From: Tubiluchus corallicola
Taxonomy: Eukaryota; Animalia; Priapulida
DNA: 64,000 nt
Reading direction: 5' to 3'
NCBI GenBank assembly: GCA_030141605.1
Contig: JAQGDQ010000218.1
Coordinates: 1 to 64,000, forward strand
Part shown: positions 47,201-53,200 of the stretch, piece by piece
Layout: the number at the start of each line of letters is the position of its first letter
How positions within the stretch are numbered: position 1 is the stretch's first letter
Notes under the pieces: generated by a model
The model's database searches: none
What the model was told of the DNA's origin: nothing
What the model saw: only the letters and a program-made list of their open reading frames with translations
Translations under genes and position numbers: made by a program

Positions 47201-50200
47201 ATCATTGGTGTTTAAACTTATGCTTTTGCGTATATGTAACTCAGTAAGATAGTTTATAGTCTATACCATTTTTATTTGTGGCATATGCAGCACTCCTAAT
47301 GAAGTAATAATTACAAGTAATTCTAGATAAATTAAAAAAACAATTTGTCATCATTCCACAAAAACCTGCAAAACCTCTTTTTCTACCAACTGTCACATAA
47401 CTTATGCATAGGAATTCATTTGCTATCATTATTCGAGGGGGCGGGGTAATGTCACGAAATTTCATCATGTAATTTCAGTATTTGATGGGGTCAACCTGTC
47501 AGATTTTTAATATCACAAATGGAAAGGGTCGTCACCAAATTGCAGTTAATGTGTAAGTTGTAAGGGATCGCATGTTAGAAACTAATTAGCTAGATTGGAA
47601 TATTCTGATTGGTTGAGGGAGGCTGATTACCTCATCAGTGGTCGTGCTCGTAAGTGGTCATTGCATGTAATGTTTCGTGCTATTGTGTGGTCAGTAGATG
47701 TGGTATTGTGTTTACTGCTTATCAGTGACCATATTTTGTTTGTGTAACTTTAGAACATGTCAAAGTTATTTAAGAAAAATCCTAGTACCAATCTTGATCA
47801 TATGCGGAATTACACACTGGTAAGTTGATGAAGTAGGTGTTGAACCATTTTGGTTTTTTTTGGGTTGTTTTTGCAATAGCATAAAAATGAAATGCTATTG
47901 CTTAAAGAAATGCTCCACATTCAGAAATGTTTCACACTCATACGAATAAATTATAGAGTCAGTAAATAGTAGATGATCAAGATTACAAATCATTTCAATA
48001 TTTAAAATGTGTACGTGCTAGATCAATCTTAAATTTGGATTTTGAATGTACACCTCCCACATAATTCTGGAATTTAAGGCTCTCATCATGTCAAGTACCT
48101 ATTTTTAATTTCTCCACCTTATTTTCTCATTTTGTTAAAAACCAATATTTTACATATACCTTATTAATTTCTCTCTGGTCAACTGAAGCAAACTGCATAA
48201 CATATCAGATAGCTTAAAAATTTGTTAGCACGTTTTAAGCATTTCTTTCTTTGTAAAAATTCAATTAACAGAGTAGTGTTCTGTTTTAATAGTTTTAGTC
48301 AGTAGTTATATCAAGTATTGTTGTACACTTTCTTCACAGTATATTTATCTGCATTTGGTATGATAGGGTTATTTTTACAAGATTACGCAAGCCTATTACA
48401 CGAGTTTTGATGCAATTTGCATTTGATATTGATGCAATTTCTTATTTTCACTTTTTTATTACTGTTGTTACAGAAATGTCATTGTACCATTGCCTCTTGT
48501 CTAACACTTGTGTCTTTTTTATGCAGGAGTTGCAGAAACAATGTGAGCAAGCTCAGGAAGAGGCGTTGGGCCTGAAGAGTCGCCTGGAAACTTCAGAAAA
48601 TGAGAGGCGAAATCTGGAGAGACAGGAAAAGGATCTTTCTGTCAGGGTTAATGACATGTATGATTTTACTTTTTGCTTTACTTGAATATTTAATATTCCT
48701 CTTTCCTAATAATACTTTAAAAGTTATCAACATTACTTATCAAAATATTTGTTTGTAAACAGGAAGCGTGATTTGGAAAATACTAAGGAGAAACATCGTA
48801 ATGCTGAGAGAACTGTGGAGATGCTGTCAAGTGAGAAGACTACCCTGGAGACTCTGCGTTCCTCTCTTAATGACCAAGTGGATTCTCTTAACTCTGGTAA
48901 TTAAGTACTTTATAATTAACACATTTTGTAATACATAAAATGAACAACCTGTGTGGCTTTCCTTCAACTATGTATGTAAAGCAGAAATTTTATTTATTTT
49001 TGTGCATGATGACAGTAACTGTGCTAATTATCACAAAAAATGCATAGTGACCATAATCGTACAAAGTTCATTTGTTTGCTTTCGTTTAACTGAAGACTTC
49101 CACACAGAAAGTTTTCACGCGAACAGCTTAAATCACCCATGCCATGCCATGCCATGGTGTAATGCCAATATGCCAATGTCATGTTGTTTTTAATACTATT
49201 TTAACTGTTAACTGCAACAATAGAATTGGTGCAACAAAAATGCAACAGCAAAAATCTCGAAAGCAATAAACATCAAATTTTATAAGATATAATCATCTTG
49301 TACTAGAAACATCAGTACGATAACCTGTATACGACACAATTTTCTTTTTCAGATAATTAAAAACTTATTTTCTTGCAATTTAATCTTATATTAGCCAATT
49401 AAAACATCATATCGTTGAAACGCTGGTTAACTTTGGAATAAGTGGAGGCCAGTAACAAAAGAAAGTAATTTATCTTGCTTGCCATGAAAATTTTCTGTAT
49501 AGTAGGCTTTGTACGTTTAAGATAAAAATTGGTGCAGATGAGAAAATTTTCCTAATTTTATTGGAGAATCTTTCAAAAGAAAAGTTGCACATGTGGTAGG
49601 TGTATGTGATCTTTCTTTACAGTAATGTCATTAGTTTATGCTGTTGAATAATAACTTTGATACTGCTATTGTAAATTTTTGTGTGTAACCACTATGTAAT
49701 ATGGAGTAGTGTTGAGAAGTATTTAAAAAACAACACCCTTAATTAGTGAATTGTTCTTGCAAAATCATAAGGTCATGCTATCCTATCGGCACCGAGACTC
49801 CATTTTAAATTAGCTTTTTTACATTAAAATAAGCCTTAGAAATTGCTCATTTAGCATTTTGGTTTTGCAGAGAACAATAAGTTGCAGATCATGATTGCTG
49901 AGCTACAGAAGGATAAGGAAGCCATGTTAGAGACAAAAGAGGCAGCGCTGCGAGAGCACGAAAGCAAACAACAGCAGCTGGAGAGACTGTAAATAAAATA
50001 CCTTTGATGTCTCTGTCTAAATATGAAACAACATGTTCTGGCTGAGCTTTTTCATCATGGTCTATTTTTTCTCATTATTTGTTGTTGCCCAGTTTTGTGT
50101 ACATTTTTTGTGATTTTATTTTAATTTATAATTACTTACACTGAATTGCTAATTACCTTATTTGTGAATTTATTTCAAATGAAACACATTTTTGCTTGCT

Positions 50201-53200
50201 TGTAATTGAAAAACATTTTGTTAAATAATTTGTTTTTTTCTCTAACAAAATGGCAATTAAAGTTATTTATGAAAAATTGTGTATTAACTCTTTTTTTCCA
50301 GCCGAATTTATTATTTCATCAGAAGTTCTTTTAAGTACTAGCTACTGGAACACTGTTTTGCTAAAAATCTAAAATAGGCTTTGCATATCAAAACTCCCAT
50401 GGCTTTTTCTAGTAAATGTTCTTTTAATGTTCTGACTTTTCTGCCTTTTGAGTGTTGTCTCTATGTTAAATGTTCGAGGCCATTATCTGTAAAATAACTT
50501 GCCGTATAAAAATTGTTTACATTATAAATCTGGACATGGAACACTGTACTCGTAGTAACTTTTTCATAAACTCCTGACTTATGAAAGCAAAAAAAATTGG
50601 TTATTGCATTTTTTTGTTTTGTATTTCATTTTAGTAATAAAACTATGGAGTCTATGGAAGCTAAGATATCTCAGCTGAAAGAGGAAAACGTGTCACACCG
50701 TGAAACCATCAGTCGCAGTCAGCTGGATCGTGATGTTCTGCTGCAAGAGAAATCTGAAATAAGTAAGTTGCCTACTAAAAGTTGTCTACTGATTACCATG
50801 TCATGTCCCAGTTCTATGAAATAACAATGTGGTTTTTACTTGAGCAGACGCTGCATGCTAGTTTTGTCAAATTTCATTCTCCAAGCATCCTTAACAACTG
50901 TCTAAACTAATTCGTAACGAGGATGTCAAATATGAGTCAAGTAAATATGCTGTACTGTTACAATGATGGACATTTCATATTTTCAAATAACAGTATGCTA
51001 CATTATTGTGAAAATGGCTAACGCTTAATTGCTTTAGGGTGCTTAAGGCTTTAAATCTACTTGATGCTATGAGATAAAGTGCATGGCTGAAAGGCAGTGT
51101 CCTCTCATTTTCCAAGGTTTCCAGGCAACTCTTCAGTCCCAATGCCTCTTCCTGAGCTTGCTCACATTGTTTCTGTAGCTCACGAATAAGAGACAAAAGT
51201 TAATTATGATGCTGAGGTAGTCACCAATGGATGAGTAAACCAGTTCACTATGGGTGGCTCCTGGTCATTTCCTGGTGGTTTCTGAACTGTCTTCACTTTG
51301 TAGAGATGGTGCATTCATACCTGAATGTGGCTAAGATACTTTTTTACTAGTTTAATTGCTCATCACGGAGGCATAGTCTGGATAATGAGTTAGATTACAG
51401 TGTTGCCATGACCATCAACTTTGTGTAGGACCTGTTGTTGGATGCTGTATTCCAACATGCAATGTTCCAGACTGTATTAATAAAGATGTGATTAACACCT
51501 TTCACAGCTAAAAATTATTACAAACATGTGCTATAGGCTGCATTGTGATTGCTATATCCACTTACTAGTCACTTCCTTAGCTCCAAACATTAGTTCTGAA
51601 ATGAGAATACTTTTCGTTGCTTTACGCTTTGCTTTATGTTCATTTTAATATAAGCTACGTTAATTTGCATTGCTTTGAATGTTTTCAGGCTCAAACATTC
51701 CAGTGCAGTGTAAGTGGTCTCTTCTGTAGTGTGCCGTGTTCTACTTTTTGCTATTATAAGTCATTTATTCTGCTATAAAAAACATGAAATTGATCTGGCC
51801 TTGTGAAATTTCCAAGGCTTGCAATACAGCTTCGCCCTTTGTACTCTGTCTGTTATATCATCATCTTTGCAATCACAGGTTTGTTTATGAAGAACCATGT
51901 GAAATCAATGTTGGTTCTCAGTTTCTTTGGTGGTCGTCACTCCTCAGTGTATCACAAAATATTTATATATATATATATGGATTTATGTGTGCCAAGACAG
52001 TCTTTTCTGAATTAGCAGAACTGACTTTCTTGAATGAGCCGAGAAATTCTTGTTTGATTATAATTGGTAAATTAACAATTTTTCTCACCTTTTTTAATTA
52101 AATGTTAAATGATTTGTATTTCTTTGATTAGGCTTCACAGATCGTTATACTAGTGAAACTGCAACTTTGTGCTTAACTGTCTGATCCACATTCGTTTAGT
52201 AAACTTAGTTCGTTTTTTCAAAGTGTTTAGTTTATTCTACTTTTAGCATTTATTACTTTTTTGCTGTCTTTGTTTGTTATCTTCTTATCTGTCTTTTTGA
52301 TGGTTATAGAGCAAGTAATCGGCTGAATAAAAAAGGGTACTATGTAATATTATAATTTTCATTGGTTGGTCACTATCACATTTGATTGTGAGATACACAG
52401 TTCAAGAGCATTGTTTGTTTGCTGTGAAAAAGATTCTGTAACACATATTGGAGCACACGACTTTGCATAAATCATGCTTGAGATGCACTTAATGACTAAA
52501 TTTAGGTCATACGGTTTAACAATGTGTCTCAGTTTTGTAATGAACAATGTTTGATAAAAACTAAAAATATTTTGACTTTCCATATCATCAGTGTGCAACC
52601 TAAATCTGCAGTTCTATGAACAAATCCAGTTTCTTCTAAACTTACATTCTTACACTGTGGAAAAGAAGTTTTTAGTAAAACTGTACACTGTTATGTGCTT
52701 AAGTAAAAAGAAACTCAATCTTGGCAACATTGACAGGCCACCAAGAGTGATTTTAATTTTTTGGTAGTAAAGCGTAATAGGCAGTGAAAATAAAAAAATA
52801 TCATATAGTGAGTATCAGAAACTAACACAATGTTATATTCTTCCTATTTCTCGCTATTTCACTGCTGTATTCCAAGAGATAATATTTCTTTTAGCCATAA
52901 TATTGTATTTATCCTATGTGTATTATTAGGCATATTTCATTTGCATGATCACCTATGTCGTAATGAAGATAAATTTTCCGTTGTGGTGTTTGTTGTTTAT
53001 TATGTACAGTTTGCCAATAAAACAATAAAACACACTAGCTTTTGCTGCTGCAACATCAATAGATGTCAATAAATGAGAGAAGTCGCTGTAAAAGTACAAT
53101 AAATATGAAATTTTATTTAGATGCAATTTATATGCACTATATATCTTCTGCTACTACTACTAGCATTACTATTATTACTATTACCAGATGATGCCCTTGT

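Follow-up and report, generated by a model that had tools for sequence, protein, structure and literature searches.

Part of a rootletin exon copied in inverted orientation into a later intron in Tubiluchus corallicola, most likely a harmless DNA-copying scar

The window (the whole 64-kb stretch analysed here) carries a rootletin (CROCC-type) gene (Table 1). PF15035 scored over the Pfam cut-off on exons 38519–38683 and 39102–39293 and, as in rootletins, a long collinear coiled coil comes after the domain. A protein search with the host exons gave 27 matches, including named rootletins, all distant. The exons are collinear with the full-length relative P0047, the E value of the exon studied here (the parent exon) being weak by itself. 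The end of this exon corresponds to a GT..AG joint, 48657>48763, in X6, an RNA contig of another lineage, and its start is probably at 48527, judging from an acceptor score of 12.2 and a frame open over six exons. The three following exons sum to 134 + 118 + 128 = 380 nt, in agreement with the circle size proposed in a preliminary description of the locus; the lengths come from X6 joints and exon-end analysis. As regards the proposed internal-promoter isoform of that description, the candidate exon upstream also has a good acceptor and may be an alternative first coding exon or a cassette exon.

Table 1. Features at the rootletin locus (window positions)
Feature	Position	Strand	Remarks
Rootletin (CROCC-type) host gene	28764..63995	+	exits window; Pfam PF15035, named rootletins, collinear exons
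Candidate 66-nt exon	47754..47819	+	ATG at 47757, phase 0 to 0; acceptor score 6.3, GTAAGT donor
Pyrimidine tract and AG acceptor of parent exon	48506..48526	+	partly copied; BLAST extension, anchored test
Parent coding exon of rootletin	48527..48657	+	131 nt, coiled coil, phase 0 start, phase 2 end
Exon in predicted loop, 134 nt	48763..48896	+	joints in X6
Exon in predicted loop, 118 nt	49871..49988	+	joints in X6
Exon in predicted loop, 128 nt	50635..50762	+	start: X6 joint; end: GTAAGT donor and open frame
Possible faint continuation of inverted copy	50801..50978	-	versus about 48651-48823; unproven
74-codon stop-to-stop frame through copy	50975..51199	-	no ATG; probably incidental
Inverted copy of 48506-48607	51101..51200	-	inside intron 50763-53187; acceptor AG lost, donor absent

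The complementarity first noticed between 48527–48607 and 51101–51181 was reproduced: exon and reverse complement are identical at 73 of 81 positions without gaps. BLAST over the 64-kb window extended it, pairing 48506–48607 with 51200–51101 (85.3% over 102 columns, E 1e-25), and nhmmer also recovered the copy (E 1.9e-19). This is the longest inverted pair within the window, and it contains a 32-nt identical core. Since the parent exon ends at 48657, the copy spans 81 of its 131 bases, without the donor. The match does run on into the pyrimidine tract, as previously described, but is weak taken alone (18 of 400 random segments extended equally in an anchored test). Among the 18 host exons tested with nhmmer, only the parent has an inverted copy; the 17 others gave none at useful E. 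An Rfam scan of 47500–53400 returned no match up to E=1, and a metagenome scan for the pattern gave 597 matches, 0 of them confirmed.

Contigs of runs X2 and X3 carry the copy with both its own flanks, which rules out an assembly artefact. Runs X1–X3 represent one sample, possibly the source of the window; the source-sample unitigs break at the shared 32 nt. A contig from another study (X4, >99% alike) crosses the parent unbroken and has no cover at 50908–51245, and the cover of contig X5, from a relative, ends by 50133. The unbroken parent in X4 fits absence of the copy, divergence or low cover equally well, and coverage holes prove nothing. A flippable segment between the arms was also considered and rejected: X4 and X5 cross the parent in the orientation of the window and X6 splices through. 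An mRNA retro-copy is ruled out, the bases upstream of the copy resembling the intron and neither upstream exon.

The eight differences between copy and parent comprise 7 transitions and 1 transversion, giving 4 G-U pairs, 3 A-C/C-A and 1 C-U on the + transcript. The preliminary counts of 4 G-U pairs and 6 of 8 silent-type positions were thus confirmed, five of the latter being strictly silent and one the third base of a twice-changed codon. Retention of G-U pairs, taken as a sign of function, amounts to 4 of 7 transitions, which is the chance value (P=0.5). For the silent-type excess, with a transition bias of 2–6, P is 0.004–0.014 if a neutral copy took all changes and 0.045–0.12 if both lineages changed; among differences polarised by X5, 5 of 7 are silent-type (P 0.012–0.035). 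The excess is real and resembles that of working alleles (silent share of 16/20 listed differences for X6 versus 6/8 for the copy, Fisher P=1); an excess of this kind is not what selection for pairing would predict. Over the 52 nt covered by X6, the parent differs from this working relative at 4 listed sites and from the copy at 6. Between X5 and the parent, 4 listed silent sites differ within the 81 nt, and X6 departs from it at 29 of 462 bases across the exons, so the silent sites of the parent are not visibly slowed. The window is CpG-depleted (o/e 0.49), and the parent CpG sites 48565 and 48581 account for two of the eight differences, as transitions; 48594 would be a third such site if G was the last base of the ancestral codon. 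Compensatory changes, which would mark a maintained pairing, did not appear at the three positions compared. Where the parent departs from its relatives, the copy keeps their letter at 48516 (versus X5) and 48608 (versus X5 and X6), and at 48571 it agrees with neither parent nor relative. These letters indicate no compensation within the pair, the contigs of the relatives not covering the copy.

The predicted copy–parent duplex reaches -155.6 kcal/mol. In the fold of 48400–51300, 98 of the 112 positions of 48500–48611 pair with the copy, and the predicted stem spans the pyrimidine tract and the first 81 exon bases and encloses three exons. The acceptor GCAG (48523–48526) is unpaired in this fold, in line with the mismatched AG reported earlier. 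The pairing potential itself is upheld as a prediction, but its stability is no better than that of random decay: the exon part gives -142.5 kcal/mol versus -139.8 +/- 5.1 when changes of these kinds are made at random, and 119 of 400 simulations were at least as stable.

Such a duplex could be a maintained editing-complementary sequence (ECS), with ADAR editing the paired exon and recoding the coiled coil of rootletin, which we consider unlikely. The geometry agrees with the downstream intronic ECSs of FLNB, GRIK2 and GRIA2 as described in PMC6724681, where the pairing also joins an exon to an intron further along one pre-mRNA; as there, editing would need to come before splicing. Exon and copy are likewise predicted to pair within one pre-mRNA with the stability given above, of the 27 exon adenosines that the stem contains, 20 would recode if edited, and, according to PMC8052449, editing sites in human genes are enriched in stable long-range pairs. 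In contrast to the ECSs treated in PMC6724681, the stem here is near-perfect over 81 bp, its partner lies four introns downstream, its A-C site is silent and the pairing is predicted. There is no excess of wobble pairs or of stability and no compensation within the pair, and the mismatch pattern neither favours pairing nor marks a recoding site. The A-C mismatch singled out at A48595 is indeed present (one of the 3 A-C/C-A), but it is at a third position where editing keeps Ser, lies in a 2x2 loop of the predicted fold and is a T in X6. The arrangement recalls the editing of inverted Alus, where an inverted pair also surrounds whole exons, although here a unique exon faces its own copy in place of repeats; editing reportedly falls with the distance between arms (PMC526178 for both points, as given there). 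Coding-site editing as a mere by-product would not make the copy a selected element. The duplex might instead control splicing, by masking the acceptor at 48527 or by driving a 50762-to-48763 back-splice that yields a 380-nt circle, a still more improbable reading. The position of the stem, over the tract and exon start and around three exons, would suit it, and PMC8052449 links conserved long-range pairs to the looping-out of exons and to circRNAs. These PCCRs share the very stable pairing looping out exons but are defined there by conserved intronic arms, whereas one arm here is exonic; the AG of the parent acceptor is itself unpaired. The splicing effects envisaged in the preliminary description all shift the frame: skipping 131 nt or the four-exon block of 511 nt, or losing 380 nt, leads to a frameshift and a stop. 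For a circle, the 5′ arm is exon 48527–48607 and the intron 48658–48762 holds no arm, and the donor at 48658 competes, being 105 nt ahead of the back-splice acceptor and transcribed 2 kb earlier. As presented in PMC4201285, back-splicing depends on slow splicing of the flanking introns, and G-U pairs limit it; the ZKSCAN1 and HIPK3 circRNAs described there also have an inverted pair around whole exons, but it consists of repeats in both flanking introns and not of a unique exon and its copy, and the upstream intron is here only 105 nt. X6 shows no A>G in 48556–48607 among the 7 of 10 differences that are listed, and no back-splice joint, and as an other-lineage consensus with the intron unseen it says nothing either way on editing or circles.

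The silent-type excess and the 32-nt identical core would fit a different history, which we regard as improbable, though less so than splicing control: the copy would be what is still well matched of an older and longer inverted duplication (about 48485–48823), its core kept alike by gene conversion, or a once-translated duplicate exon later inverted. For the copy-side flank (50800–51100), two scorings rank the collinear place first or tied for first out of 846 window segments, and in four scorings the score of the faint continuation is reached by 4–7 of 843 real segments. Against this, three other scorings find 21–69 of 843 segments as high, the register shifts between scorings, nhmmer does not detect the continuation, an extension anchored at the 3′ end has a score of 0, and gene conversion alone gives no enrichment of silent changes. 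One reading accounts for that enrichment directly: a minus-strand coding exon trans-spliced onto the upstream rootletin exons, yielding a shortened rootletin that ends in a new tail of 41 residues, as alternative 3′ exons are described as being trans-spliced at Drosophila mod(mdg4). We hold it to be very improbable, and equally so that splicing would proceed in frame via the CAG at 51175–51173, with the copy also pairing with the parent exon. This CAG, nine bases into the copy, preserves phase 0 and the frame stays open for 41 more codons, but as many open codons are found at 675 of 9125 minus-strand places (7.4%). The weak acceptor opposes the reading: the CAG scores -2.5, whereas the lowest of the 19 window acceptors has -1.3, scores as high occur at 1659 of 3611 minus-strand AGs, and the opposite-strand values of -5.2, -2.9 and -2.5 compare with 12.2 for the parent. 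Among proteins of 40–130 residues, the minus-strand frame has no word-sharing protein and no homologue, and 51001–53500 is without a CpG-rich promoter-like stretch. If it were true, a mechanism known from Drosophila would extend to another animal gene.

We favour, with a probability of about 0.72, the copy being a neutral templated inverted insertion that is likely decaying without function; an editing or splicing switch is not supported by the tests, and a harmless DNA-copying scar is most likely. A neutral inverted duplication had been the alternative offered in the preliminary description itself, and the tests favour it. As in templated insertions, the copy is inverted and its template is nearby and unique. 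A single template-switching event in DNA repair or replication would have produced the inverted copy of the exon part and acceptor tract. The donor was probably an allele that had already diverged at silent sites and was subsequently separated from the copy by recombination, a history that would account for the silent majority among the differences; the copy would then have taken few later changes, with the look of CpG decay. As both arms are within one nascent RNA until intron 50763–53187 is removed, the duplex probably forms in some transcripts and may, as a by-product, attract incidental A-to-I editing at a low level. PMC8421209 describes small inverted templated insertions as standing germline variants in humans. 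The present copy resembles MMB-TI and FoSTeS/MMBIR events, as described in PMC8421209 and PMC5120786, in that a short piece of nearby sequence has been copied in inverted orientation and is carried in the germ line. It differs in that its template is 2.5 kb away, versus a search within 100 bp in PMC8421209, and in that the junction microhomology of such events (PMC8421209, PMC5120786) is not visible here after ~10% divergence.

Some observations count against the neutral insertion. The silent-type excess is one, the diverged-allele account being our inference. A near-perfect 81-bp partner over coding exon and acceptor has also been carried long enough for ~10% differences, and if the faint 180-nt continuation is real, the 81-nt core would have been preserved selectively. 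Junction microhomology at the ends of the copy amounts to at most one base, at 51100, while the other end fades out, and the 2.5-kb distance is greater than the 100 bp searched in PMC8421209.

As debris, the copy carries little weight, being a further case of an exon piece copied in reverse into an intron close by. Because 20 of 27 stem adenosines would recode, the pair nevertheless offers a clean natural test of incidental editing on an 81-bp exon–intron duplex over 2.5 kb in an invertebrate; high and conserved editing would point to an editing guide born from exon duplication in a ciliary rootlet gene, of which the papers listed by a literature search on rootletin and RNA editing showed no report.

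The inverted copy of the rootletin exon (51101-51200, within intron 50763-53187) is real and of an ordinary kind. The complementarity of 51101-51181 to 48527-48607, earlier counted at 73/81, holds, and the match extends to 102 columns (85%, E 1e-25); copy and parent form the longest inverted pair within the window. The copy contains 81 of the 131 bases of the parent exon (48527-48657), the donor being absent, and an inverted copy was found for one of the 18 exons tested. It was seen with its own flanks in contigs of sequencing runs X2 and X3, X1-X3 being a single sample, possibly the source of the window. 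The continuation of pairing over the pyrimidine tract held in part: the tract is present but decayed (18 of 400 random segments extend equally), and no AG stands at the aligned place.

The host gene is rootletin, on the + strand, starting at ~28764 and continuing beyond the window end. PF15035 scored above the Pfam cut-off in two exons, and one further exon gave 27 matches, named rootletins included, the best named match being molluscan (78% across half an exon). A relative of 1827 residues is collinear with exons 28764 to 61964, and reading is stop-free through six exons (44482 to 53351). X6, an RNA contig of a related lineage, carries joints 48657>48763, 48896>49871 and 49988>50635, all with GT..AG ends, and differs from the window at 29/462 letters.

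Parent and copy are predicted to form a duplex of -155.6 kcal/mol. In the predicted fold of 48400-51300, the copy pairs with 98 of the 112 positions of 48500-48611, leaving the acceptor GCAG in a loop. As both arms would coexist in nascent RNA until the intron is spliced, they are likely to pair in some transcripts. Selection on pairing is not detectable. The preliminary description had pointed to four G-U pairs, but 4/7 transitions leading to G-U is the chance value (P=0.5). Duplex stability lies within the random spread: the exon part reached -142.5 vs -139.8 +/- 5.1 for random changes of the same kinds, 119/400 being as stable. As to the A-C mismatch proposed as an editing target, A48595 occupies the third position of a Ser codon, where editing would be silent; it adjoins a C-A mismatch within a predicted 2x2 loop, and X6 has T at this position.

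Parent-copy differences were partially polarised by X6 (7/10 differences listed) and X5, a DNA contig of depth 4.4 (10/14 listed). At 7/8 of the sites where copy and parent differ, no difference of X5 from the parent is listed. Because the copy has the relatives' letter at 48516 (X5) and 48608 (X5 and X6), the parent probably changed there once the copy had arisen, with no matching change in the copy. The three states at 48571 are all different.

We therefore favour, with no selection on pairing detected, a neutral inverted duplication (probability about 0.72), which the preliminary description had offered as an equal alternative. The copy behaves like the templated inverted insertions described in PMC8421209 and PMC5120786; literature searches for a described case of such an inverted exon copy gave general papers only. 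A selected editing guide appears unlikely: the geometry is that of an intronic editing-complementary sequence (ECS), but the copy lacks the ECS signatures in those tests run. The speed of splicing influences editing at intronic-ECS sites (PMC6724681), and greater distance between arms gives less editing (PMC526178); among the six papers listed of eight matched by a literature search, no report of rootletin editing was seen. A splicing or circRNA switch would be very improbable. A frameshift and a stop follow in each case if the parent (131 nt) or the block of four exons (511 nt) is skipped, or if the proposed circle (380 nt) is lost; the only in-frame multi-exon skips are 48763-49988 and 49871-50762. 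Circle formation would need acceptor 48763 to withstand the donor that lies 105 nt before it. Back-splicing requires slow flanking introns and is limited by G-U pairs (PMC4201285), and conserved long-range pairs are associated with loop-out and circRNAs (PMC8052449), although the arms in the latter are conserved introns.

The claim that six of the eight differences fall at silent-type positions was borne out, and this excess is a point against plain decay of the copy. In post hoc tests on eight sites (transition bias 2-6), P was 0.004-0.014 for a neutral copy taking all changes and 0.045-0.12 with changes in both lineages; after polarisation (5/7) it was 0.012-0.035. Selection on pairing does not predict the excess, because it would hold back change at silent and replacement sites equally. 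Silent sites make up 16 of the 20 listed differences of X6 from the window (29 in all) and 5/5 of those of X5, so the copy's pattern resembles that between working relatives. Over a common 52 nt the copy differs from the parent at six sites and X6 at four listed sites; at 48565 X6 and the copy have the same letter. Differences between X5 and X6 inside the parent exon imply large allelic depth. The simplest account would be that the donor was a diverged allele and that the copy later recombined beside the present allele; alternatively, the excess may come from a once-translated duplicate.

A duplication of greater age, with gene conversion or a coding past, is improbable. Minus strand 50978-50801 aligned weakly to 48651-48823 and ranked first or tied first of 846 in the reciprocal test; of 843 real window segments, 4-7 reached its score under four scorings and 21-69 under three, an unrelated segment at 53401 outscored it, and nhmmer did not report it. 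An extension of the copy is at most suggested; if real, the 81-nt core would have been selectively preserved or converted. The copy also lies in a 74-codon stop-to-stop minus-strand frame that lacks ATG and has an in-phase CAG. Use of the copy as a trans-spliced exon is nevertheless hardly credible: under a small model trained on partly predicted exons, the acceptor at this CAG scores -2.5, lower than each of the 19 acceptors in the window, and 1659 of the 3611 AGs on the minus strand do equally well. A search among proteins of 40-130 residues found no homologue of this frame. Separately, 53410-53583 has faint direct similarity to 48635-48796 (best of 843 segments; not reported by nhmmer).

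Repeats and duplications elsewhere in the window
Feature	Coordinates	Location or remark
Nested inverted pairs	30499-30576 / 31909-31994; 30623-30654 / 31105-31136	rootletin intron; transposon-terminus-like (non-autonomous)
Repeat element with inverted ends	15783-16552, 24916-25710, 40337-41142	one element, three diverged copies
Tandem duplication, 128 nt	29184-29439	95% identical; intron following exon 28764-29015
Imperfect palindrome, 133 nt	14364-14496	upstream of rootletin gene
Inverted pair, 42 nt	8954-8995 / 9793-9834	upstream of rootletin gene
Long microsatellite	43458-43630	AAT then AAC
Dispersed repeat fragment	51381-51455	180 bases from copy; matches three other X1 contigs

Over 47600-52100, divergence from the window is ~6% in exons and ~10% or more in alignable introns for X5 and X6, whereas X4, from another study, is >99% alike; the runs sharing one species label are therefore likely cryptic lineages. 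In the intron upstream of the parent, 46001-46500 is CpG-rich (o/e 1.01 vs 0.49 for the window), a candidate internal promoter. The word ATTGG (reverse CCAAT) occurs twice, at ~47594 and ~47608. A candidate 66-nt exon, 47754-47819 (phase 0-to-0, ATG at 47757, good acceptor, GTAAGT donor), may be either a cassette exon or the exon in which the coding sequence of a short isoform begins.
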